Assembly (NCBI GenBank): GCA_000165345.1
Contig: CM000434.1
Location: forward strand, 608,001 to 672,000
Length of the DNA: 64,000 bases
Direction of reading: 5' to 3'
Shown here: piece by piece, positions 47,036 through 63,659 of the stretch
Layout of the letters: every line of letters starts with the position of its first letter
How positions within the stretch are numbered: the stretch's first letter is position 1
The notes under the pieces: model-generated
What the model was told of the DNA's origin: nothing
Databases searched by the model: none
The model's input: only the letters and a program-made list of their open reading frames with translations
Translations under genes and position numbers: made by a program

Positions 47036-49129
47036 ATGGAGCTACTACCAAATTCAGTGGAAGATTTTACAAGTAGTGAATACTGGAGTGAGTTCTTTAA
47101 GAAGTATGGAGGCGAAAGCAACCGAGCATTTGAATGGTATGGAGACTTTGAGGTTCTGAGGGACCTTTTGATACAATCTTTACGTAATAGTGGCAGGTCA
47201 GAACTAGACAATAAGAGGATTTTGCATGTAGGATGTGGAAATTCCACTCTTCCAGCTAAATTGTATGATGAAGGTTTTACAGATATTACAAACATTGACT
47301 TTTCAAGTCAGATTATTGAGTTAATGAGAGAAAAAAATAAGTCCAGGGAAGGATTAAAATGGGTTTGTATGGATATTGAGAAGGACTTTGGTGATTACGT
47401 TGAGAAGGCGGAAAATTTGGGAAAATTTGATACGATTATAGACAAAGGGTTTTTGGATGCTTATTTATCAGACAGTACATCTGAGAATGGACTTTCTTCA
47501 AGAAAAAAATCAACTGATTTTTTGAATTCATCCATTAATCTTTTAGCTCCAAATGGAAGGTATATTTTGATTACTCTAGGCCAGGAGTATGTAGCTAAAG
47601 CTTTAACTATGGGGTTATATAATAAAGGTCTTGAGGTTATTGTTGAGCCTTTAGTTGGAATTAAAGATTCAAAGTTTCTTCCATATTATATTGAGATTAT
47701 CAATAAAAGTGATTTTCAGAATTTTGAGAAGTCATTTTTTAGATTCAGAGGATCTGGGACTGAGGAAATTTGTAGTGCTGAAGGTCAGTGTATTTGGACT
47801 TTAGCAAAAAGACTTAAGGAGCTTTCTGCTATGTTTTGGAATAACAAATATATTGGTGATTTTATGCCAGGAGAAATAAAGGAATACCAGCTTAATATAA
47901 AGGAATCCAAGAATAGCCTTTTTATCACTGTATATGATACAATGAGCAAAGAAAAGAAAAGAAAGCTTACAGTAGGTCTTCTCGTACCTTTAGGAGAGGA
48001 GCAGGATTGGCTTTATTCTACAAGAAAGGGGTTTGAAGAAATCTGTAGTCAAGCCAAGTGTAAGAGATTAATTGTGATTTCAAGATTCTATTCAGATTCA
48101 GAGGAAGCTTTGAAAGTAAGTGAACAGGAAATCCTGGATGAAATTTCGAATAATATCTCTCCTTTAGCTTTAAAAGGTTCTAACAGATTTCCTATTCTAA
48201 CTGTAGGCGGAGACAAGAATCTAGACAAAAAATGTATTTATAGCTGTGATTCAAAGTACTCTAAGGAAATACTTGTTTATGATATTCAAGAGTCTGGTAT
48301 TGAGAAGAGACAAATGATTTTCAGGTCAAGCCCAAGACTTATTCAGTCTGAAGTAGTAATTCGAAGAAATGATTCGAAAACAATTGAAATTGACTATTTA
48401 AGTGGGTTTTCAAATTATTATGTAGGAGTTATATTGGTTTCAAGTCTTATTTTGGATACTAAAAATCAAGACAAAACGAGAAACGCTCTCATTTTAGGCT
48501 TAGGAGGAGGAATCTTAGCTTCAATATTGAGAAAGTTTTATTCAAAGCCTAAACTCCATATTTCTGCAGTTGAAATTGATGAGAATGTAATGAATGTAGC
48601 GAAAAATTACTTTGGATTTTCTGAAAGTGAAACCAAAGTTATTATTGGAGATGCACTGGACTATGTTAATAACAATTATTTAGAGATTAAAGACTCTCTG
48701 GATTATATTATTGTAGATATTAACTCTGGAAATGTGAATGATTCTCTTATGTGTCCAGGAGTAGAGTTTCTTTCTAAAGGGTTTATAGAGAAGCTAATTG
48801 TTTCTTTAACAAAAGATGGTTGTATTGTTTATAACGTTTCATGCAGAGACTCTAATAGAAGAGAAGAGCTTTTTAATGAATTTAGAGATTTGTTGAATAA
48901 AATGGAAGAGAAAACTAATTCCAAAAGAATGATTCTTCAGGCAGTGGAGACAGGAGATGATGAGATTAATGAACTATGGATAATCAAAAGAGAAACAAAT
49001 GATAATATTGAAAAAGTTAGAAACTTTATAATAGAAAATGAATTATTTATAGGTAGTCAGGAAAATACATCTTTAGAGACATATGATAAAAAGGATCTCT
49101 GGATTAAGAGGTTCTCAAATCTTAAGTAG
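47036..49129 (+). CDS. METTL13 (eEF1A-KNMT)-like protein with two methyltransferase domains: an N-terminal class I SAM-MTase and a C-terminal spermidine-synthase-like MTase
   Basis: ATG at 47036. The N-terminus MELLPNSVEDFTSSEYWSEFFKKY...AFEWYGDFEVLRDLL...ILHVGCGNSTLPAKLYDEGFTDITNIDFS closely follows METTL13's N-terminal domain (W..FF......FEWYG.....L......LV.GCGNS.L...LYD.G...I.NID.S). The C-terminal half carries a second motif I, ALILGLGGGILASIL, and motif II, IIVDINSG. Confidence 0.75.
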   Translation: MELLPNSVEDFTSSEYWSEFFKKYGGESNRAFEWYGDFEVLRDLLIQSLRNSGRSELDNKRILHVGCGNSTLPAKLYDEGFTDITNIDFSSQIIELMREKNKSREGLKWVCMDIEKDFGDYVEKAENLGKFDTIIDKGFLDAYLSDSTSENGLSSRKKSTDFLNSSINLLAPNGRYILITLGQEYVAKALTMGLYNKGLEVIVEPLVGIKDSKFLPYYIEIINKSDFQNFEKSFFRFRGSGTEEICSAEGQCIWTLAKRLKELSAMFWNNKYIGDFMPGEIKEYQLNIKESKNSLFITVYDTMSKEKKRKLTVGLLVPLGEEQDWLYSTRKGFEEICSQAKCKRLIVISRFYSDSEEALKVSEQEILDEISNNISPLALKGSNRFPILTVGGDKNLDKKCIYSCDSKYSKEILVYDIQESGIEKRQMIFRSSPRLIQSEVVIRRNDSKTIEIDYLSGFSNYYVGVILVSSLILDTKNQDKTRNALILGLGGGILASILRKFYSKPKLHISAVEIDENVMNVAKNYFGFSESETKVIIGDALDYVNNNYLEIKDSLDYIIVDINSGNVNDSLMCPGVEFLSKGFIEKLIVSLTKDGCIVYNVSCRDSNRREELFNEFRDLLNKMEEKTNSKRMILQAVETGDDEINELWIIKRETNDNIEKVRNFIIENELFIGSQENTSLETYDKKDLWIKRFSNLK

Positions 49130-50092: not shown

Positions 50093-51521
50093 ATGGTCAG
50101 AGTTCAGTTGTTTTACAATTCCTCATGGGAACGAGTCTTTTTTTACAGTGATGAGCAAGAAAACCTTTTTGATAATGAGCAGAAGTGGGTATTTAGAGAA
50201 ATGAAACCATTAGAAGAAAATTTGGACTGGCATACAATCGAGTTGGAAACAAAAAGGTATGTTGTTTTTTGAAGAATAGGTCTGAAAAGTTAACTTTCTA
50301 CTATTTAGAGCTTTTTTGGAGTTTGTTTTGTGTAATACTGAGAAAACAGAATGGGACAATCCTCCTAGTTCATATGGTAGAAAAAATTACTTTATTAGTA
50401 TCAAAGATGCAGAGAGGGAGTCAGGAAAAGATGCCAAAAAAGGTCTAAAATTTTGTCTAAAGGATGGAAACTTAAGCCATATAGTTTCAAGACCTCCAAT
50501 TGCAATTGTAACAGACTTGGATGGAACTTTGATAGGACATGACGAGTATTTGAAGATGTTCAATGAGATTTGGATTAGACAGCATATGTTCAATAATTCC
50601 AAATTAATCTACTCAACTGGTAGGAACCTCAAAGATTTCCTCCTTGCAGCAAAGCAATTCAATCTTCTTAGACCTGACTATGCAATTTGCGGGGTAGGAA
50701 CAGAAATATATGAATTTCCAAATAAAGAAATGAATCTTGAGACATTTTGTCAAAGGTTATCCAATACTATAGGAAGGAATGTAACAAAAGAGGAATTATT
50801 TTCCTTGTTGAGATTCCAGGACATGGGGGAGCGTGTTGAAACCAAGGAGGGAGACGAGGAGAAAGTGACCAAAGATGTGAATCCCATGTTCCCAAGATGG
50901 TGCAAAAGCAGGTTATTTGCTTGGCCTGTGGATAAGTGGTTGGAAATCATAAGAAAAACATTCAACAGAGATGAATTGAAAAAAGAAATTCAAGAAAATC
51001 TGAACAAGATCGGTCTAGAATATTACATTAATGGAAACAACTTTCATGATCCATTTCGTCTATCAGTATCCATCAAAACAGAATATGCTTTGAAAGTGTA
51101 TGAGGAAATACAAATAAACAAAAAAAGCTATAGGTTCGCCATTAGCGGACAAGGAGCATGGAAATATTTAGATGTGCTTCCTGATAAAGGTGGAAAGCAC
51201 TTATCTATAATATTTCTCCAAGATGAGATTCTAGGAAATTCTATCCCTTTGGAAAGGTTTCTGGTATGCGGAGACTCTGGAAATGACGCTCATATGTTTA
51301 CAATCGAGACATGCAAAAACTGTTGTGTCGGAAATGCTCAACAGGATCTCAAGGATTTCTTATTAGGAGGTTGCCTAGTGAACAGTGATGAGCCTGAGTC
51401 AAGAAAAGTCTTGAGTAGCCAGAGTGAGCTCCTATGTAGAATTATGGCTTGCCAGAATCTGAAGCCTCCAAAAAAAGTAAGTTTTACTCCAAAAATGTCA
51501 TTTTGTATTTCACTCAATTGA
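50093..51521 (+). CDS. HAD-superfamily phosphatase of the sucrose-6F-phosphate phosphohydrolase (SPP/S6PP) family, two exons: 50093..50256 and 50309..51521, with a 52-bp intron
   Basis: The track ORF begins at a TTG (50316) and has no ATG before the HAD motif I, so a 5' exon is required. ATG at 50093 ... AAAAAG|GTATGT; acceptor CTATTTAG|AGC, in frame (..ETKR|AFLEFVLC..). HAD motif I is IAIVTDLDGTLIGHD, motif II is IYSTGRNLKDF...AICGVGTEIYEF (it follows plant SPP [VF]STGRS........K....P.I.I.SVGTEI), and motif IV is GDSGNDAHMF. Confidence 0.65.
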
Positions 51522-53518: not shown

Positions 53519-53541
53519 ATGTGGGTACATGCAAAAAAAAC

Positions 53542-55635
53542 ATGGAAATTAAGAAAATAACACAAATGCAGCAGGATGAGATTTTTCAAGAGAATTTGGA
53601 ACTATTTTTAAGGAACTGTGAGTTGAATAGAGAGGTGGGATGGAGGGAGGTTGAAAACACGGATTTACTAGTCCGTTTGAATGATTATAAAGAGAATCAG
53701 AAGAGTTTGGAGCTTTTTATAAAGAAGCTAAAAGAAGATGAGATTGACTCATGCTTAGGAGAAATTTCGGCAAAAAGTCAGCTTAAAGAGTCTCAGAAGA
53801 TAGTGAGAAGCTTGGAAAAATACAACGAATATTTAAAGGCTATGCTACGTAAGTATATGAATGCTGGTTGCCACATAAATAAAATTTTGAATGGGGAAAA
53901 GATAACTTCGGAAGGATCATTAGAAAATGAATCTGAGGACGAATTCAGAGAGAATTTGAAGAAATGTCTGAACATACTGGAACTGCTTTCGATGGATATT
54001 GAGGAGCAAGTCAAGTATAAGGACAAGTACAAAGCATTGAAGACAGAAAACAAAGATTTAAAAGGTAGAATTGAGAAGTTGACTAGGGTTAAGCCAAGCA
54101 AAAAGGTGAGAATGGAGGTTTCTCTGACAATAATTGAACCATTTGAGTTTGATAAAGAATTAATCAAAGATACCCAAATAGTTGAGGATGTTTTTGAGCA
54201 GATAAAAAACGACCCTGTGGATAAAAGTCTGGAGGAAGAAGATATTGATAACAAAGAAATTGATATTAGTTATGAAGTTGAATGTTTGAATTACCTAATA
54301 AAACAACATAAGAAGGAAAATTTCGAGCTTAAGCAAAAAATTTTCGAGTATGAATTCAAAGATAACAAACTTGACGTGGAAGCACTAATAGAGTCAAAAC
54401 TTATGGATAAGCAAAGGGAACTAGATGAGTTGGAAGAAGAGTACTCAAATTGGGTAATTAGACTTCAGGGAGAGAATTCTGAGCTAAGAAAAGTAATTGA
54501 AATCCAAGAAAAGAAACAATCAGAATTTATTGATAACTTTACCAAAAAAAGCCAAGAGAAAGCAAAAGAAATGCAAAATATGCAGTTAAAGTTGGTAGAG
54601 AATTACGAGGAGAGGCTTAGAGAAAAGAATGAAGAGTTGAGGAAGCTAAGAGGAGAAAATATACAAGGAGAAAAGGATAGTATAGAAATAGAGTCTCTAA
54701 ACAAAATAATTAAGAGTCTCGAGGAAAAATTAGTTTCTATTTCCAGTGAGAGGCATCGTTTATCATTAGAACTTGAAAAAACAGCTAAAGATCTCAAAGA
54801 TACCGATAAGAGACTAGTTTTGAGTGAAGAAGAAATAAAGAAAAGAGAAAAAGAATTTGATTCTCTAAAAGCTGAGCAGGAAAAAATCCTTGAAGAATAT
54901 TACCATGAAAAGAAGTTGCACCAGAAGTTCGAACAAGATGCTCACTCACTAAAAAAGGAGCTCGATAATGTACTCAGTGATATGTACAAGAATCAAAAGA
55001 AAACTAGATCTGGAATTGTTGGCGATTCCATTGATAGCGACAAAATTTCTTCGATTGAAGCTGTTATTAAGCATTGCAAAGAACTTGAAGGTAAAGTTGA
55101 AGAATTAGGTTGCGAATTAGATCAACTTAAAAGTGGGAAATCTGTCACTTATACAAATTCAAGTCATAATAATGCAGAAATTGAAACTCTATTTGATCAG
55201 GTACAAAGCCTCAGGAAAGAACGTGAACAACTTAAAAAAGACATTAGGCAGAGAGATTGGGCCAAAGTCGAAGTTGAAATTCTTCATAAGCGTATTACCG
55301 AGGAAATTGATCAACTCAAGAGGGATAACACTCGACTAATGCTTGAAAATCTCAGATTAAGAGATTCTGGCGGAATCCAGATTTCTCAAAGGCAGAATTT
55401 CTTGAATTCAAACAATGAAAATATTCAAGCCAATAGTACGAGATCATCCATTTCGGGTGACAAGCAGGAATTACTAAATAAAGGCACTGAGACGAACCCT
55501 TCAAATCTTGAAGAAACTAATCATAATAATTCAAACGTTTCTGTTTCTAGAAACAGTATTCAATCTATACTTAATCTAAAGGCTCCTAGAAGGCCTAGTT
55601 TACTAGTTCAACAAAGGAACTACTCCGAAAAATAG
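53542..55635 (+). CDS. Long coiled-coil protein (Glu/Lys-rich, ~700 aa)
   Basis: The track start at 53521 is a GTG; the first ATG is at 53542 (MEIKKITQMQQDE...). The product has extensive heptad-like E/K/L-rich sequence throughout (e.g. LEEEYSNWVIRLQGENSELRKVIEIQEKKQSEF). Confidence 0.55.
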   Translation: MEIKKITQMQQDEIFQENLELFLRNCELNREVGWREVENTDLLVRLNDYKENQKSLELFIKKLKEDEIDSCLGEISAKSQLKESQKIVRSLEKYNEYLKAMLRKYMNAGCHINKILNGEKITSEGSLENESEDEFRENLKKCLNILELLSMDIEEQVKYKDKYKALKTENKDLKGRIEKLTRVKPSKKVRMEVSLTIIEPFEFDKELIKDTQIVEDVFEQIKNDPVDKSLEEEDIDNKEIDISYEVECLNYLIKQHKKENFELKQKIFEYEFKDNKLDVEALIESKLMDKQRELDELEEEYSNWVIRLQGENSELRKVIEIQEKKQSEFIDNFTKKSQEKAKEMQNMQLKLVENYEERLREKNEELRKLRGENIQGEKDSIEIESLNKIIKSLEEKLVSISSERHRLSLELEKTAKDLKDTDKRLVLSEEEIKKREKEFDSLKAEQEKILEEYYHEKKLHQKFEQDAHSLKKELDNVLSDMYKNQKKTRSGIVGDSIDSDKISSIEAVIKHCKELEGKVEELGCELDQLKSGKSVTYTNSSHNNAEIETLFDQVQSLRKEREQLKKDIRQRDWAKVEVEILHKRITEEIDQLKRDNTRLMLENLRLRDSGGIQISQRQNFLNSNNENIQANSTRSSISGDKQELLNKGTETNPSNLEETNHNNSNVSVSRNSIQSILNLKAPRRPSLLVQQRNYSEK

Positions 55636-56060: not shown

Positions 56061-56813
56061 ATGGAGATAATCAGAAATATAATTAACATATATCTTAAAA
56101 AGTTCTTGCAGCTTGAGGATCTTAAGTGGGACATCAACCAAGGACTACAAGTTGACCATGTTAGGGCAAACTCACAGAGTATCAATAAACAATTCGAAGA
56201 AAAAGGTATTCCCATTCAAATATATAATGGAACTTTAGATTCAATAAAGATTACTTACTCTCCTACAAACGGAACATTTCAAATACATATAAAAGAAATT
56301 AATGCTCAAATCAAGCCTAGGGTACTTTCTACTGTCGGAAAAAAGATCCAGCAAGGAATTGTTAACATTATTCTGGATGAGGACCCCATTGAATTTATTG
56401 ATTCCTACTCATACATCAGAGATCTACCCATATCATACCTAGAACAAGCAAGTAAAAAATCAGAATCATCTATTGCTGATCCCGACCTTATTCCAGACCC
56501 TCCCAGGTTTCCCACTGCTGCCTTGAAAATCAAACAACATACAGATTACCCGCCCAAATATTACCCGCCACTTCATTTTAGTATTTATAAGCCAAAAGTT
56601 ACAAAGATGCCTGCAACATCAACACCACTCATATTTCAAAATCGTTGCCAGGAGCATCATCTACCATCTAGTCCACTGGTGTATGGGCCAAGGAATCAAA
56701 GTGTTCCTATTTTACAGGATTTCCACAGCCAGTTTCAGCCCAGTTATATAACAAATAATAACTGCGAAAATGGACATGTTAGAGCACTTAGGGAAAGCGG
56801 TTTTTGCATATAG
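56061..56813 (+). CDS. Hypothetical protein (250 aa) with a Pro-rich C-terminal half
   Basis: ATG at 56061. The N-terminal ~90 aa (MEIIRNIINIYLKKFLQLEDLKWDINQGLQVDHVRANSQSINKQFEEKGIPIQIYNGTLDSIKITYSP) show an amphipathic pattern weakly like chorein-N-type N-termini. The C-terminus is Pro/Tyr-rich. Confidence 0.4.
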   Translation: MEIIRNIINIYLKKFLQLEDLKWDINQGLQVDHVRANSQSINKQFEEKGIPIQIYNGTLDSIKITYSPTNGTFQIHIKEINAQIKPRVLSTVGKKIQQGIVNIILDEDPIEFIDSYSYIRDLPISYLEQASKKSESSIADPDLIPDPPRFPTAALKIKQHTDYPPKYYPPLHFSIYKPKVTKMPATSTPLIFQNRCQEHHLPSSPLVYGPRNQSVPILQDFHSQFQPSYITNNNCENGHVRALRESGFCI

Positions 56814-56858: not shown

Positions 56859-57881
56859 TTACTTTCTATTGCTTCTCGAATTCCTCAACTTGTTTTTTGA
56901 GGCAGTTCTATTTTTGTTTGCACTAATGAAAGTTTTGTTTAAAAGTGTTGAAAGCTCCTTATCTTGTTGATTTATTTGGTCTATTATAAATCCTGTGTTT
57001 GTAATAACATCTTCAGTATTCTCTGATACATCGTATTCCCCTGAGTAATATTCTTCATCTGACAATGAATCTTCTCCCATGTTTAGAGAGTTATCAACTA
57101 TCCCAATACCAGAGAACGAGTCTAACTCATTCTTGTACATTCTATTACAAAGTTTCGGGTACTCTAAAGGTTTATAAAGTTCCTCAATCTGATTTAACCA
57201 ATCTTTTGCTCTTTCTGATTTTAGATTTAAATCCTTAGAGCTTTCGTTACCTGAAATGGCTTTCCCCAGAGTCCTACCATCACTTGGGATCTTGATCCTC
57301 TCAGCTGTCCTGTTAATACCAAAAAATGAATTCTTTCTTGAAGGTAAGCCTCTATTAAAAGAATGCCTTCCATTTCTTGCATCAAAACTCATGGAAAGCC
57401 TACTTTCTTTCAAGTCAAATTCATTCAAACCTCTCAAATTTAACCTGTTCTTTTTTTCGAATCTACTATTTTCATTATTAAAGTAGCAATCATTCTGAAA
57501 TAATTCGTTTATCTCAATCTCAACCTGTCTTGAAACTGCCAAATCTACTTGTCTACACTTACTTTTTAAACTATCTCCTTTTAACCTGTCAATTTCGCTC
57601 CTCATCAGCTCATTATGTTCTAATGTATTACTGTATAGCTGGTATGTTTCTAGAAGCTTTTTTCTTAAATTATTTACTTCATATCTTAACTGTCTTCTTA
57701 GCTTTAACTCAGTCTTATGTTCTAATTCTACTTGTCTCAATTTTCTCTCGAGGAATCCAACAGTTTGTGCTTCCCTCTCCTTAGTCTCTAAATGTCTCTT
57801 TTCCAAATCATTCAACTTCACCTCTAACCGACTTTTGAGAATAAAGTCCTTCTCATTGATTAGTCCAGAATTATCCTCCAT
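56859..57881 (-). CDS. Hypothetical coiled-coil protein
   Basis: The track start at 57899 is a TTG; the first ATG is the revcomp of cat at 57879-57881 (MEDNSGLINEKD...). The N-terminal 130 aa are coiled coil (LEVKLNDLEKRHLETKEREAQTVGFLERKLRQVELEHKTELKLRRQLRYEVNNLRKKLLE). Confidence 0.45.
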   Translation of the reverse strand: MEDNSGLINEKDFILKSRLEVKLNDLEKRHLETKEREAQTVGFLERKLRQVELEHKTELKLRRQLRYEVNNLRKKLLETYQLYSNTLEHNELMRSEIDRLKGDSLKSKCRQVDLAVSRQVEIEINELFQNDCYFNNENSRFEKKNRLNLRGLNEFDLKESRLSMSFDARNGRHSFNRGLPSRKNSFFGINRTAERIKIPSDGRTLGKAISGNESSKDLNLKSERAKDWLNQIEELYKPLEYPKLCNRMYKNELDSFSGIGIVDNSLNMGEDSLSDEEYYSGEYDVSENTEDVITNTGFIIDQINQQDKELSTLLNKTFISANKNRTASKNKLRNSRSNRK

Positions 57882-58094
57882 TAATAAGCTTTTGATCAAT
57901 TCAAACTACCCTACATTAACTTAAACATTAAGTAATATTAAATACTAAGTTTAAACCCAAATAATTGCTCTCACTTTATTCCTCGATTTGTAAACAATTT
58001 TAAATCTTTTTTTTAAATTTTTTTAATTTTTAATATTTTCTTTTTCCTCAATTAGATTAAATCTTTGTAATATAATAAATATGCTTACTTGCGT

Positions 58095-58243: not shown

Positions 58244-59464
58244 ATGAGTCACATTAGGCCAGTAATTAAATTAAAAGGAATAGAACCAATATGGAAGAAT
58301 TCAACAGATATTCTCTCATTTGAAGAAACTTCTATCATACAAAAGTCTCTCAAGCATATGTCTAATGAAATTAAAGAGCTAAAAGAATGTAAACAAAGTT
58401 TATCTTATTTAGAAGTTGTTGATATTTATAAAAGATTTGGTGATCTTATAAACTGTTTTGTTACTCATTTTGACTTTAATAGAGTAAAGATATTTTCTCA
58501 AAGGAGAAGCATTGCAAAGTACTCCTACCATATATTGATATGTATTATCAATATTATTGAAGATAAGTCATTTCAGCTTGATAAAGAAAGTTTAGTAAAA
58601 AGTTGTCAGATATGTTTGAATTATTACTTTCCATCAAAGGCAATCAAACAAATGGAATCCAACTCAAATAAATCAGAATTCGATCTAAATAGCAGTTCTC
58701 AGAGGTTTGATTTAAATAGAAGTCAGGATTTATGTAGTACTCCTCCTAGAAGTTCCGTATCTATGGATATTTCAAACTGTCTTCCCAACCCAAGTCCATT
58801 TAATTTATCTTTAATATCACCAGGATCTTCAAGTATTTCAATTTACCAACAACCTATTACAAGATATAACTCTTCAGAAAATTGTCTCTCTGAATATACA
58901 AATTTACATATCCAACATAATCAAGAAGAACCTTTTAGCTGTGAATCAGAGTTTTTCCCAAATGAATTTCAGTTGCCAATGCCAATTGAGGAAGCAAAAA
59001 GAAGACTCAGAGAAAAGCTATTGAGGAAGGAAATATCTGATATGAAGAAACAAAAAAATAAGGAGCTTGACTACCAATCCGACTATAGCAATTTAAGCTC
59101 TCCTTTAAAAAGTAAATCTCTCTTACATTCTTGGGGAAGCGAGCAAAGCGATAAGTCTGAATTACATATTGAAGATCTTGCTGGTGCATCAAGTGAAAAT
59201 CCATACAAAAGCAATAAAGTTGTCAATATCAAACATAATCTACAAACCCAATCAGACTTTTGGGAATCTACAAAAGTTGCTGCTCAATTAGCTGAAACAT
59301 TACCCGAACCTCACAGGACTCGTAGAATCAGAAAAGAAATCTATCAACAAAGTATAGAAAGATCTGTTGAACTTTTAAAGAGCTTAGGGATTTGTAGGAA
59401 CTTCAGACCATCAGTCCTTACAAAGACGATGATACATACTGTAGAATGTATAATAGATTACTGA
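58244..59464 (+). CDS. Hypothetical protein (406 aa)
   Basis: ATG at 58244. No recognisable domain. The C-terminus is basic (EPHRTRRIRKEIYQQSIERSVELLKSL). Confidence 0.45.
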   Translation: MSHIRPVIKLKGIEPIWKNSTDILSFEETSIIQKSLKHMSNEIKELKECKQSLSYLEVVDIYKRFGDLINCFVTHFDFNRVKIFSQRRSIAKYSYHILICIINIIEDKSFQLDKESLVKSCQICLNYYFPSKAIKQMESNSNKSEFDLNSSSQRFDLNRSQDLCSTPPRSSVSMDISNCLPNPSPFNLSLISPGSSSISIYQQPITRYNSSENCLSEYTNLHIQHNQEEPFSCESEFFPNEFQLPMPIEEAKRRLREKLLRKEISDMKKQKNKELDYQSDYSNLSSPLKSKSLLHSWGSEQSDKSELHIEDLAGASSENPYKSNKVVNIKHNLQTQSDFWESTKVAAQLAETLPEPHRTRRIRKEIYQQSIERSVELLKSLGICRNFRPSVLTKTMIHTVECIIDY

Positions 59465-59511: not shown

Positions 59512-60835
59512 TTAATATAATGCTAAATACTTACTTTCTATATTTTGTTTTAAAATAATATCGGGAGGAAGTCTTTTAATTACTTTTAATATATAGTTTG
59601 TGATTCCCAGATAAGTAAACCAATGTTTGAATTTCTTAATCTGTTCAAATTTGAATTTTAATTCATCTTCACTGAGTGAGTTTAAAATATCGAATAAATC
59701 TTCAATCTGAGAGATATGGATAACTATTCCAAGTCTCTCCATTAAATTCCCATATGGAATCCAATTTACATCGTCCCAAATATATATTGGAATAGTTCCT
59801 AATTGAACTGATTCATATAGTCGAAAAGAAGTTCTTCCGAACCCTCTAGGACATAAATGAAAAGTTGAACGTTGAATTACTTGTTTGAACTGATCTCCTT
59901 GATAGTGAATAAATTGGTTTGTTACATTTTCTAAAACCTTAAAGGGGGTAATTTTATCCAACATTTCATCAGTCACATTATAATATGAAAAAGTCTCAAA
60001 TAATTTTTTCCTAACAGGGAAGTGTTTTTTAACAATAGTTGAAGATACCCAAATATCCTTTTTTGCTTTAAGTCCTTCATATTGAAGTTCGCCTTTAATT
60101 AATGGTATAGGAACTTGTTTAAATCCAGTGGTTGCTCCTCCAGCATTGAATACTATTAGATTTGACATGGACATAAATTTCAATTTAGACTTTTTAAATC
60201 CTTCTGCATCCTATATTGAGTTAGAGTTATAAAAATGATTGAATATTTGGAATAATACCAAATATTTTAAAGCTTACCTGTAGTACAGTAAAATACATTG
60301 TTTCATTTTTAAGTGAATTTAATACATCCTGAGCTTCTTTTTTCCATTCTTTCTTTAAATCAAGCTCAACCTTATTTCTATGAATTGAAGTCCAAAATAT
60401 TGGGATGTAAACTGGAGGAATAGGTTCAGATTCATTACATACTTTGATTTGTTTTGTTGAATACTGTGTAATCCAATTGCAAAAGACTCCATCTTCTATC
60501 CATGGTCCCATATATCCTGAATAGTTTGTATTTAGTCTAGGCCTTAAATTTTTGGTTAGGTTGAAAATTCGGATTTGTTCATCACTTAAACATATTTCTG
60601 TGGTATTATCTCTATTTTGTTTTGTTATATTTTGCAAGTTTATTTGATCCAAATTTCCATCAAAATTCAAATTGCAGTCCAAATAGTCAAACTGAGGATA
60701 GTTTTCCAGGAAGAAACTCCTTGGATTATTATTGCTAGGAAATTCTTGGATGTACAGGTAAATTATTATTCCACCGGTAATTATTAGCATGCATGCAAAT
60801 TCTAATAAAATTAGAAAATTGCATGACAATTTCAT
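59512..60835 (-). CDS. Exostosin-like glycosyltransferase (GT47 family, type II membrane topology), two exons: 60278..60835 and 59512..60210, with a 67-bp intron at 60211..60277
   Basis: ATG is the revcomp of cat at 60833-60835. The signal-anchor is MKLSCNFLILLEFACMLIITGGIIIYLYI. The donor is CTACAG|GTAAGC and the acceptor AATATAG|GATGCAGAAGG, in frame (...YFTVLQ|DAEGFKKSKLKFMSMSNLIVFNAGG...). The downstream exon carries the exostosin/GT47 C-terminal signature STFHLCPRGFGRTSFRLYESVQLGTIPIYIWDD. The ORF track splits this gene into two ORFs, the second starting with a TTG. Confidence 0.7.
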
Positions 60836-61350
60836 TTTCTAATATTTTTTGGAAGAAAAAAATGATTTTTTTTTTAAGAAAAAAAAAAATTTAAATCTTT
60901 TTAGGAAAAATAATATCTCTTGCCACTGTCACTTTTATAACCTTTTCAGTATAATTTTATTCCTTTCTGAATCAATATTTAACTCAAACACTCTTTTCTT
61001 GAAGTTTAGAAATATCATCTACACTTTGTTCAATTACTCTTATTTTTCAAAAATATTATTTCTATATTCTAGAAATACTTCCAGTTCAATGCTTTAAAAT
61101 ATTTTGTTTCTTTTGAAATATTTTTTTTTAATTAAATTAATTTTTGTATTACGTGTCATATTATGATACCTTTTAGTAACGCGTACATGTAATCTTTAAA
61201 TATTATTTTTTCGAATTAATGTGGACGCCCCCAATTAATAAGGAAAAAAAAAATAAAATAAAAAAAATTTTAAAAAAATTTTAAATAAATAAAATTTAAT
61301 ATTTTAAAAATTCTACAAATTAATAGTGTTTGTGAAAGAATACTATTGAA

Positions 61351-62110
61351 ATGCAAAGCCAAGAAATGAGACCTTTGGAAACTTCATCAGAAAGATCTGG
61401 CGAGGTTGTGGGTAAGTTAAATTCCGTGCATACGTATGTGGGGTTAAAATAATTTACAAAAATCTCAGAAAATTCAACTAAAGCAATGGAAGTAAAATTA
61501 GAGGAGAACTCTGAGCCAATGACTCCGAACTATGTTGTTTTCTTAAGAGAACTATTTGTGGGAATGATTGGGGTGCATGCACTATATATTTTTGTAAATT
61601 TCATATTCAGGAACTACCCTGGTTCATTATTATCTCTATTACTGTAAGTTTAATAATATTAAGACATTTAATAATAAAATATTTATACTTTTTTTTAGTA
61701 CAATTTCTGCAATTTATACCCATTTTGACAGAAGAGTTGCGACTTATTCATTAAATACAGGTATAGAACTTCTATTGGGAATTACAATAGGATTGTCAGG
61801 TAAGTTATTTGGTTATTTTTAGTTAAAAATAGATTATTTATATTAATTTATCTTAACTTATAGTTTACTCTCCAGTCCAAGGTTTCGAAAAGTATTTTAA
61901 CGATTCAAACTTAAAGGTGAGTTAGGAAAAAGGATTTGAGTTTTTTTTTTAAAGAATTTCTAATTAAACTATTAATTTTAATCTATTTTACAGAGAGTAA
62001 CTCTTCCTCAACTTGTTTATTGTGCTTTATTTGCATTAATTTCCATTATTTTGGCACGTTTTGAGTACAAATTCAACCAGAAGAGAATAATTAATTCAAA
62101 AAGAACATGA
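61351..62110 (+). CDS. Small polytopic membrane protein encoded by a five-exon gene (approximate exons 61351..61411, 61469..61643, 61699..61799, 61864..61916, 61994..62110)
   Basis: Not in the ORF track. The donors are GTAAGT, GTAAGT, GTAAGT and GTGAGT, and the acceptors are poly-T plus AG, all read from the sequence. The spliced frame is continuous: MQSQEMRPLETSSERSGEVVENSTKAMEVKLEENSEPMTPNYVVFLRELFVGMIGVHALYIFVNFIFRNYPGSLLSLLLTISAIYTHFDRRVATYSLNTGIELLLGITIGLSVYSPVQGFEKYFNDSNLKRVTLPQLVYCALFALISIILARFEYKFNQKRIINSKRT*, with about 4 hydrophobic helices. The family is unknown. The start could instead be the ATG in exon 2 (MEVKLEE...). Confidence 0.4.
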
Positions 62111-62220
62111 AATTATTTAAAACATCTTTTTTAATTTGTTTATTTAATTTTAATAAAAAAAATGGAAGAAGTCAATTGAATAAGTATTTAGTACGTGGAA
62201 GCTTGTTTATGTTACATGAC

Positions 62221-62255
62221 TTGCATGTAAAATTGCATGTAAACACCGGTATATG
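62221..62255. promoter_or_regulatory. Composite upstream element: two TGCATGTAAA boxes followed by AAACACCGGTATATG, the reverse complement of the 15-mer at 53433
   Basis: ttgcatgtaaaattgcatgtaaacaccggtatatg at 62221-62255, read directly. It lies about 140 bp upstream of the 62394 ATG and about 110 bp downstream of the small 5-exon gene. Confidence 0.45.
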
Positions 62256-62393
62256 AGTTTATTTACTAAATATTGACTAGTTATTAAGGATGATTAATTA
62301 ATTCTATAATTTCTTGAATAAAACATATATATATAATTTTTTTTTTGGAATAAAATTAGTTATTAGATTAGAATTGAATCTAAGTATTCGAGT

Positions 62394-63659
62394 ATGAACC
62401 TACATAATGATTTAACAAGTGGTAAAGCAGTAAAGTTCCAATTACTTGCCTTTGGATTGTCAATATTAATATTCATGGGAGGAACTTTTTATATGTTAAT
62501 AAATTCAAGCAGAAACCTTGAGAATGGAAAACAGAGAATTTTTCTCGAGTTAGAAGAGAAAGATATAACAAATCAAAAAAGCTTGGACGAATTAGATAAG
62601 CTAAATGACTCGATGCTCAGAATTTCACTTAAGTTGTCAGAAAGCAAAGATATGTTTGATACCATTGGTGCTTCAATTAATAAAATTGCCAAATATGTGG
62701 AAGCAAATGAAAAGAATATGACAGCAAAAGAATTTATTATTAAAGAAGAGTCAAAGAATGGCTTTGTTTTGGATTCAGTGTTGTTTCCATGTAAATATAG
62801 TTTTGATGGCCCGATATATATATTACTTACTACTACCCCAAAAAGAATTGATAACTTGGGTAAGTATTTGGACTTATTACATAAACAGACTTATGGGATT
62901 AAGGAAGTGATTTTATCCATTCCATACATTTTTGAAAGGACAGGAGAAGAGTATCCACCAATTCCAGGTTATTTGCAAGATAAAAATAGATTTCCTTTAC
63001 TGAGAATTTTAAGGGGAAAAGACTACGGTCCAGCAACAAAATTTCTATTACCAATAGAGATTGGGAATATTCCAGAAGATTCAGGACTGGTAATATTGGA
63101 TGATGATACAAGATATTCAAGACATCTAGTTTGCGATTATATTTATATACACGAAAAATTTCCAGAAGCAGCTTTAGGTAGAAGAGGACAGGCTTTTCAC
63201 GATAAATGCGATCCAACATATAGAACAGATAGAACTCACAGAGTAAGTCACGATCAAAAGAGTGCAAATTTTGTTATTAGAAGCGTAGATCTCCTGAGTG
63301 GAGTTGGAACATATTTTATTCAAAAAAAGTTCATTAGTAAGGATATTTTAACTCTAAAGAATAATTGTCCTACAGAAACTATCAATCATATGTTCTTTAC
63401 TGATGATATTTTGATTTCAGGTTATCTTGCATACAAGAACATTTCAAGGATTGCATTTTCAGATGAGCTTTCAATAGAAGATTTGAATCGACCATATTTG
63501 TTAGGATCTGGTCCTGGAGCTCTTTGGGATATTAATAAGGAAACCTTTCATAATGACAATAGTACAGCAGCATTTGGTTTATATTGGGGATGTAGGAACA
63601 AAGATACAATAGTAAGCAAGCATGGAGAGATACTTTGTAGGTGGAGAAACGAAGTTTGA
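62394..63659 (+). CDS. Type II membrane protein with a DDD (DxD-like) motif; putative Golgi/ER glycosyltransferase-like protein
   Basis: ATG at 62394. The N-terminal signal-anchor is VKFQLLAFGLSILIFMGGTFYMLI, followed by a coiled stem. The globular domain includes YILLTTTPKRIDNLGKYLDLL...GLVILDDDTRYSRH (a Rossmann-like beta-strand start plus DDD). The family is not assignable by eye. Confidence 0.45.
   Translation: MNLHNDLTSGKAVKFQLLAFGLSILIFMGGTFYMLINSSRNLENGKQRIFLELEEKDITNQKSLDELDKLNDSMLRISLKLSESKDMFDTIGASINKIAKYVEANEKNMTAKEFIIKEESKNGFVLDSVLFPCKYSFDGPIYILLTTTPKRIDNLGKYLDLLHKQTYGIKEVILSIPYIFERTGEEYPPIPGYLQDKNRFPLLRILRGKDYGPATKFLLPIEIGNIPEDSGLVILDDDTRYSRHLVCDYIYIHEKFPEAALGRRGQAFHDKCDPTYRTDRTHRVSHDQKSANFVIRSVDLLSGVGTYFIQKKFISKDILTLKNNCPTETINHMFFTDDILISGYLAYKNISRIAFSDELSIEDLNRPYLLGSGPGALWDINKETFHNDNSTAAFGLYWGCRNKDTIVSKHGEILCRWRNEV

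Follow-up and report, generated by a model that had tools for sequence, protein, structure and literature searches.

A GT47/exostosin-type and a GT45-like glycosyltransferase gene with female-stage expression lie side by side on Cryptosporidium parvum chromosome 6

The analyzed window is a stretch of 64,000 nucleotides (nt) of Cryptosporidium parvum chromosome 6 (GenBank assembly GCA_000165345.1, contig CM000434.1, positions 608,001 to 672,000 of the forward strand); all positions below are window coordinates. Near its end, three neighboring genes, here called (i), (ii) and (iii), encode a GT47/exostosin-type enzyme, a small membrane protein and a GT45-like enzyme. Genes (i) and (iii) appear to specify two catalytically intact type II transferases whose transcription is nearly confined to female gametes and zygotes. 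With moderate confidence, we propose that their most likely role is the successive addition of sugars to a glycoconjugate of the oocyst wall or glycocalyx.

A preliminary description, made from the DNA sequence alone, had placed three membrane-protein genes here, the middle one intron-rich. All three models were reproduced, and each translates to a protein identical to one deposited for C. parvum. The region is AT-rich, with a GC content of 26–30%, and is laid out as follows (aa, amino acids).

60835..60278, minus strand: exon 1 of gene (i), aa 1–186, with a short cytosolic tail, the membrane anchor and the N-terminal half of the predicted lumenal domain; old ID cgd6_2910.
60277..60211, minus strand: intron of gene (i), 67 nt, GT..AG; its excision puts both open reading frames (ORFs) in frame.
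60210..59512, minus strand: exon 2 of gene (i), aa 187–418 and the stop codon, with the C-terminal nucleotide-sugar-binding half; old ID cgd6_2900.
60836..61350, no strand: divergent intergenic region of 515 bp, common to genes (i) and (ii).
61351..62110, plus strand: gene (ii), exons 61351-61411, 61469-61643, 61699-61799, 61864-61916 and 61994-62110; 168 aa.
62394..63659, plus strand: gene (iii), a single exon of 421 aa, identical to deposited P0097 (Q5CX14); old ID cgd6_2920.

Genes (i) and (iii) thus lie on opposite strands, 1.5 kb apart, with gene (ii) in between. The 418-aa product of gene (i) corresponds to deposited P0084, "Exostosin-like protein" (CPATCC_002829). Its models differ between databases: the original Iowa II annotation holds the C-terminal exon only (218–220 aa), others begin at Met16 (403 aa), and others give the full 418 aa. 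A start at Met16 was ruled out, as residues 1–15 show conservation between species and the membrane span would not be full-length without them. The entries cgd6_2900 ("Exostosin-like protein") and cgd6_2910 ("Uncharacterized protein") are apparently two exons of one gene, so that expression tables count gene (i) twice.

Sequence comparison identifies gene (i) as a genuine GT47/exostosin relative, because a Pfam model scores above its cut-off, the family profile matches EXT1, EXT2 and EXTL3, and the PRG..SFR..E motif is invariant. The Pfam model Exostosin_GT47 (PF03016) reached 36.3 bits against a gathering cut-off of 33.4, over aa 284–364 only, and is also present in the orthologues and bacterial relatives of the protein. 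A profile built from the family alignment of 30 sequences (A2) was searched against solved structures and matched EXT1 (1.9e-14), EXT2 (1.4e-11), EXTL3 (8e-10) and the chlorovirus protein A075L (PDB 8avq; 1.7e-3). The hallmark motif itself lies in the C-terminal exon.

59770..59859, minus strand: GT47 hallmark motif HLCPRGFGRTSFRLYESVQLGTIPIYIWDD, aa 304–333 of gene (i), which aligns with the EXT1 segment PRGRRLGSFRFLEAL.

Within it, P307, R308, G309, G311, S314, F315, R316, Y318 and E319 are invariant in the 30 homologues (P-R-G-x-G-x-x-S-F-R-x-Y-E). Invariant residues in the family alignment span aa 105 to 393, and G110, P111, W112, E114, Y143 and P145 are invariant with bacterial homologues included. 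Hydropathy analysis gave one N-terminal membrane span at aa 7–25; conservation of the N-terminus extends to other Cryptosporidium species. The initial view of gene (i) as a type II protein with the exostosin/GT47 hallmark in its C-terminal exon is borne out by the Pfam score, the EXT1 match and this single span. The Pfam model RXYLT1_C (PF24785), on which most bacterial relatives likewise score, gave 25.6 bits, below its cut-off of 27, so that gene (i) does not classify as an RXYLT1 member.

In a word-indexed search, the closest relative of gene (i) outside the genus was P0019 (39% identity, 8e-56), a GC-rich, eukaryote-like sequence that we believe to be from a chromerid; after it, no relative outside Cryptosporidium was better than 3e-36. 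The next relatives are proteins of 290–360 aa with about 30% identity, found in cyanobacteria, Planctomycetota, other bacteria, one archaeal metagenome-assembled genome (MAG) and metagenomes.

Gene (iii) specifies a GT-A enzyme that, as judged from profile matches, is best described as GT45-like and not GT64, since the profile of its family matches PmHS2 and KfiA, with EXTL2 reached at 0.44 only. This profile (A3), built from 71 sequences with the window protein among them, matched the KfiA-like half of the Pasteurella heparosan synthase PmHS2 at 1.8e-15 over profile positions 13–252, the whole domain. Its match to Escherichia coli K5 KfiA, at 4.5e-9, brings the DDD motifs into alignment. The link to PmHS2 and KfiA is transitive, because it rests on an intermediate family matched at 1e-30 to 1e-47; a profile restricted to Cryptosporidium and chromerid sequences matched PmHS2 as its sole glycosyltransferase, at E=0.019. 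The protein consists of one N-terminal anchor at aa 12–36 (hydropathy span aa 12–30), a helical stem at ~aa 40–125 and the GT45-like GT-A catalytic domain at ~aa 135–421, and each of its six cysteines is invariant or near-invariant among orthologues. Two motifs stand out in the catalytic domain.

63021..63041, plus strand: DYGPATK motif, aa 210–216 of gene (iii), invariant in the orthologue alignment (A1).
63099..63107, plus strand: DDD (DxD) metal and nucleotide-sugar motif, aa 236–238 of gene (iii), invariant in both A1 and A3.

Of DYGPATK, only D, G and K are invariant in the wider alignment A3, with P and T near-invariant. The DDD motif aligns with that of KfiA (LTDDDIIYP) and that of PmHS2. 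A GT-A fold with a DxD in register with KfiA's was found, in agreement with the earlier proposal of a type II membrane protein with a DDD motif as in GT-A folds. In UniRef, the orthologue from C. hominis bears the name "Glycosyl transferase 64 domain-containing protein". GT64 membership was rejected, as Pfam GT64 gave no match at E<=1 and A3 against EXTL2 gave E=0.44; the label is roughly right on fold and possible chemistry, with the sequence placing gene (iii) nearer GT45.

Neither gene (iii) nor its relatives matched a Pfam or NCBIfam family, and sub-threshold GT2 matches occurred in some bacterial relatives only. Beyond Cryptosporidium species, the word-indexed search returned nothing but Vitrella (P0010, 50% identity) and a single weak environmental match. 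An exhaustive profile search retrieved 4,228 cluster representatives at E<=1e-3, of which 1,890 remained at E<=1e-10. After Vitrella, the second-closest relative outside the genus is Cvel_21244 of Chromera velia (P0103, 2.3e-68), and beyond these two orthologues no relative in the exhaustive search was better than 1e-47. The remaining relatives that were looked up are environmental or MAG proteins, typically of 250–320 aa and annotated "hypothetical protein" at best; two of them carry organism names, a cyanobacterium and a Candidatus Delongbacteria MAG. The motifs TTxPxR, QT, D(Y/W)GPxTK, DDDxxY and DDxxxSG are common to the family. Gene (iii) thereby reveals a large GT-A family related to GT45 that has no Pfam or NCBIfam model. 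Among its members, P0104 shows a tandem domain duplication; in others (P0105, P0121, P0113) the domain is joined to GT2 domains, to TPR repeats or to what may be a methyltransferase domain, scored below threshold.

Stage-specific expression was taken from supplement 4 of Tandel 2019 (PMC6877471), which reports log2 counts per million for sorted stages. Values are given as asexual / female in vitro / female in vivo, followed by the log2 fold change of female versus asexual stages.

cgd6_2900, gene (i) exon 2: 1.44 / 5.67 / 6.39; 4.23.
cgd6_2910, gene (i) exon 1: 0.96 / 5.31 / 6.05; 4.35.
cgd6_2920, gene (iii): 1.36 / 5.33 / 3.87; 3.97.
cgd8_920, UDP-glucose 6-dehydrogenase (UGDH): 0.96 / 7.43 / 8.10; 6.47.
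cgd6_1450, pyruvyl transferase: 1.72 / 6.11 / 8.36; 4.38.

In asexual stages, genes (i) and (iii) sit at the detection floor, and in females they are about 16-fold higher. Most replicate values of the asexual stages coincide with the minimum of the sample, so that the transcripts are essentially undetected there. All five entries fall in the co-expression sheet SortCluster3. Co-expression of the trio, suggested as a check beforehand, could be followed in part: genes (i) and (iii) are upregulated together in females, but gene (ii) has no annotation in this 2019 data set. The joint upregulation is in keeping with genes acting on a stage-specific glycan of the wall or glycocalyx.

The published record is consistent with the idea that these genes stand outside the standard parasite glycosylation toolkit, as had been supposed, and genes (i) and (iii) are absent from the published Cryptosporidium reconstruction. 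That 2022 reconstruction of Cryptosporidium glycosylation (PMC9713705) mentions neither these genes nor any GT47 enzyme nor xylose. It names UDP-glucose dehydrogenase in a figure legend only, with no downstream transferase, lists no transferase consuming UDP-glucuronic acid (UDP-GlcA), nor does it report UDP-xylose synthase for Cryptosporidium. According to Tandel 2019 (PMC6877471), no polysaccharide of the wall has been identified and "numerous glycosyltransferases" are female-specific; cgd6_2900 and cgd6_2920 are not on the gene list of its glycosyltransferase heat map. A 2026 review places glycosyltransferases within a second wave of female gene expression. Our literature search found no mention of cgd6_2900, 2910, 2915 or 2920 in main texts, and no paper linking Cryptosporidium with exostosin, GT47, GT45 or heparosan synthesis.

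Enzymes of the GT47/exostosin family are inverting and form beta-linkages, and several donors are in use among its members. The GT45 alpha-N-acetylglucosaminyltransferases KfiA and PmHS2 are retaining and form alpha-linkages. We propose that the catalytic domains of (i) and (iii) would face the lumen of the secretory pathway, where both could act as single-action transferases in the endoplasmic reticulum/Golgi or wall-forming-body route. Gene (i) would add a beta-linked sugar and gene (iii) an alpha-linked sugar, in succession, onto a secreted glycoconjugate. The best guess for the donor sugars would be GlcA (beta) for gene (i) and N-acetylhexosamine (HexNAc) or hexose (alpha) for gene (iii). 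For gene (i), GlcA is favored because EXT1 is the best-matching characterized enzyme, UGDH is co-induced, and the reconstruction contains no UDP-GlcA consumer and no UDP-xylose synthesis. In this scheme, we infer the linkage stereochemistry, the donor sugars, the single pathway and the wall or glycocalyx destination.

The same observations lend themselves to a bolder scheme, in which the two proteins form a split exostosin-like co-polymerase: a GT47 beta-GlcA activity and a GT45-like alpha-N-acetylglucosamine (or HexNAc) activity would alternate to build a heparosan-like or acidic polymer of the glycosaminoglycan (GAG) type for the oocyst glycocalyx or (inner) wall, with UDP-GlcA supplied by the co-induced UDP-glucose dehydrogenase. 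The domain logic parallels that of EXT1/EXT2 (GT47 and GT64) and of KfiC/KfiA or PmHS2 (GT2 and GT45), the top solved-structure matches are EXT1 for gene (i) and PmHS2/KfiA for gene (iii), and female stages show strong induction of UGDH (log2 fold change 6.47). Such a polymer would also give UDP-GlcA the consumer that the published reconstruction does not list, and would concern a wall whose polysaccharide, according to Tandel 2019 (PMC6877471), has not been identified. Nevertheless, identity to characterized enzymes is only 16–21%, polymerizing activity is not inferable from sequence, and the closest relatives of both proteins are uncharacterized environmental proteins. The annotated 44–64 kb part of the window holds no primer or linker enzymes and no sulfotransferases, and the literature search found no report of glycosaminoglycan synthesis by Cryptosporidium. 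We therefore consider a split polymerase improbable. If true, it would mean GAG-type synthesis in an apicomplexan, with a bacterial-type GT45 partner replacing GT64.

Whether genes (i) and (iii) serve one pathway at all was assessed from the conservation of their pairing. The adjacency of genes (i) and (iii) holds throughout the genus. Even in C. muris, of the species examined the most divergent, the trio has the same order and orientation, and the neighbor corresponding to gene (iii) has 426 aa and scores 2e-215 against the gene (iii) profile. Genes (i) and (iii) also share a restricted phyletic pattern, being found in Cryptosporidium and, with P0019 as a probable chromerid sequence, in chromerids; orthologues of similar closeness were not found elsewhere. 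The pairing was surveyed at 91 loci of prokaryotes or metagenomes that carry a GT47-like gene (11 from genomes and 80 from metagenomes, 885 kb in all). The only paired locus, L062, lies on a metagenome contig (Ga0206130_10000030) of 242 kb that is gene-dense, has 28% GC and could belong to a giant virus or an AT-rich bacterium. Here the pair is part of a mixed glycosyltransferase island (positions 1–20738) with at least 8 glycosyltransferase-like genes, including HtrL/GT4, GT32-like+GT2, GT2, GT47-like, GT-D-like, GT45-like and GT11. No two-domain fusion of GT47 with a GT-A partner occurred among the 250 proteins retrieved to that point. Being two separate genes, (i) and (iii) are not a bifunctional EXT-type polymerase.

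Several considerations weigh against successive action on one wall glycan. Cryptosporidium genomes are highly collinear overall, and conserved adjacency within the genus carries little weight for this reason. The Vitrella orthologue of gene (iii) has no GT47 gene within 10 kb, and a GT45-like gene was found near the GT47-like gene in just one of the 91 surveyed loci and in none of the 11 genome loci. Common membership in SortCluster3 says little about a single pathway, because the cluster is very large, and the old cgd6 IDs behind the expression values were assigned to the window genes by product name and numbering order (2900, 2910, 2915, 2920), not by sequence. The AlphaFold2 (AF2) model of gene (iii) has no more than moderate confidence (pLDDT 57), and Foldseek fails to separate GT2, GT45 and GT64 on it. 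Donor specificity cannot be read from 16–21% identity.

Alternatively, genes (i) and (iii) could be unrelated neighbors in different pathways, their adjacency a by-product of a compact, collinear genome. For example, gene (i) might add a single sugar that extends an O-glycan, as RXYLT1 and A075L do, and gene (iii) might cap mucin O-glycans or a glycolipid with an alpha-sugar. The absence of the pairing in Vitrella, its rarity in the survey, the missing fusions and the size of the co-expression cluster all agree with this explanation, as do the near-threshold RXYLT1_C score of gene (i) (25.6 versus 27 bits) and its profile match to A075L (1.7e-3). Against it stand the restricted pattern that the two genes share in Cryptosporidium and chromerids and their female-specific expression of similar magnitude, and a xylosyltransferase role for gene (i) is made less likely by the lack of a UDP-xylose synthase in the published reconstruction. 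We regard unrelated neighbors as possible, though doubtful. For the proposal of successive sugar addition, a shared pathway is plausible and not more than that, because genus-wide adjacency, expression and phyletic pattern have to be set against the unpaired Vitrella gene, the single paired locus in 91 and the absence of fusions. The initial suggestion that the trio forms one glycan-synthesis module survives in this reduced form for genes (i) and (iii), but nothing ties gene (ii) to glycosylation and the pairing is not found in Vitrella.

Gene (ii) encodes a real, conserved and genus-restricted protein with four predicted helices, which probably plays no catalytic part in the pathway. It corresponds to deposited P0092 (cgd6_2915 / CPHLJ_6g2915 / CPATCC_0014470) and has four introns, each GT..AG, packed into 760 bp. 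This structure contrasts with the long uninterrupted form of the other window ORFs examined. It seems that the original annotation overlooked this gene, whose ID cgd6_2915 looks interpolated. Deposited models of its orthologues vary in length between 96 and 168 aa, suggesting that annotation has often mis-spliced them. The protein could not be placed in a family. Homologues were found within Cryptosporidium only, with a mean column identity of 69% and a segment, YTHFDRRxATYxLN, that is invariant save at x. The preliminary description of a small protein with four transmembrane segments agrees with the four long helices of the AF2 model, but hydropathy calls only two spans. Its inclusion of this protein in a glycan-synthesis module is not supported, as gene (ii) matched none of the Pfam models of PIG-P, DPM2/3, the OST subunits (OST4/DAD1/TMEM258) and ALG14, and its fold matches are generic four-helix bundles.

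One could still imagine all three genes as a single functional unit, with the small protein serving as a membrane subunit, anchor or chaperone of both transferases. The 515-bp divergent region that (ii) shares with (i) would suit such a unit, and so would the persistence of (ii) between the transferase genes across the genus, C. muris included, at 69% mean column identity. Yet the protein matches no known glycosylation subunit family and only generic folds, no chromerid homologue was found for it, unlike for both enzymes, and no expression data were found for it. A three-gene unit seems to us quite unlikely.

A sequence motif pair had been proposed to be shared by two promoters in this window. 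One copy has the position of a candidate promoter element.

62222..62256, plus strand: two tandem TGCATGTAAA copies followed by ACCGGT, intergenic, 149–172 nt upstream of the start codon of gene (iii).

The second TGCATGCA/ACCGGT copy, at 60773-60799, proved to lie within the coding sequence of gene (i), where it forms the codons for ..ACMLIITGG... It is not in a promoter, because the N-terminus of gene (i) is conserved at the protein level in other species, and the DNA motif cannot be conserved in C. canis, which has ACI at this position. This copy looks coincidental. The intergenic region between (i) and (ii), 60836..61350, contains no TGCATG and no ACCGGT. In C. muris, TGCATGCA(TG) and CCGGTAT occur in both orthologous intergenic regions, upstream of (iii) and between (i) and (ii) (locus L013, 4840-5145 and 5742-6000), and could be a conserved pair of cis-elements for the locus. 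Across the whole window, TGCATGTAAA with <=1 mismatch gave 10 matches against 7.4 expected, i.e., no enrichment.

The other neighbors annotated in the 44–64 kb part of the window are housekeeping genes. Located 8 kb away from the transferase genes, the ORF at 50316-51521 (plus strand, 401 aa) has a match at 1.3e-35 to Pfam S6PP, a model for HAD phosphatases like sucrose-6F-phosphate phosphohydrolase, and its product is an enzyme of the sugar-phosphate phosphatase type. The ORF at 47036-49129 (plus strand, 697 aa) combines an N-terminal S-adenosylmethionine-dependent methyltransferase domain with a C-terminal spermine/spermidine-synthase-like domain. Between 53521 and 59464, four successive ORFs (53521-55635, 56061-56813, 56859-57899, 58244-59464) have no Pfam family at E<=1e-3.

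The oocyst wall gives Cryptosporidium its environmental and chlorine resistance. Genes (i) and (iii), absent from the host-like N-, O- and glycosylphosphatidylinositol-glycan pathways, are overlooked candidates for building the oocyst sugar coat. With UDP-glucose dehydrogenase and the pyruvyl transferases, they make up a short, testable list of candidates for the wall or glycocalyx glycan, and possible transmission-blocking targets.

Among known systems, the locus recalls the EXT1/EXT2 heparan sulfate co-polymerase (GT47 and GT64; PDB 7sch, 7zay). Gene (i) has the GT47 nucleotide-sugar-binding domain with PRG..SFR..E, and the locus, like EXT, brings together a GT47 enzyme and a relative of alpha-HexNAc transferases that is of GT-A type and has a DxD; both are type II membrane proteins. 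In contrast to EXT1/EXT2, two separate genes are found here instead of one two-domain polypeptide, and the GT-A partner is GT45-like, not GT64. For gene (i), significant similarity is confined to the C-terminal half of the GT47 domain, and its closest relatives are short, bacterial-type exostosin/RXYLT1-like proteins. Gene (iii) is only 16–21% identical to the heparosan alpha-1,4-GlcNAc transferases of GT45, KfiA of E. coli K5 and PmHS2 (PDB 5z8b, 8vh7, 8viw). What sets it apart from these are its eukaryotic type II anchor, its conserved cysteines and a stem resembling a coiled coil; the DYGPATK motif corresponds to DYKDVGK in KfiA, and the partner of gene (iii) would be a GT47 enzyme rather than a GT2 GlcA-transferase (KfiC, or the N-terminal domain of PmHS2). 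RXYLT1/TMEM5 and A075L of chlorovirus PBCV-1 are single-action, exostosin-like beta-xylosyltransferases. Gene (i) resembles them in being a stand-alone GT47-like domain, but its RXYLT1_C score is below the cut-off, its EXT1 match is far stronger, and UDP-xylose synthesis is not reported for Cryptosporidium. Annotations of the genes exist, if poor and inconsistent ones. As enzymes, the two represent divergent new members of familiar glycosyltransferase kinds, and they do not on their own reveal a new kind of system.

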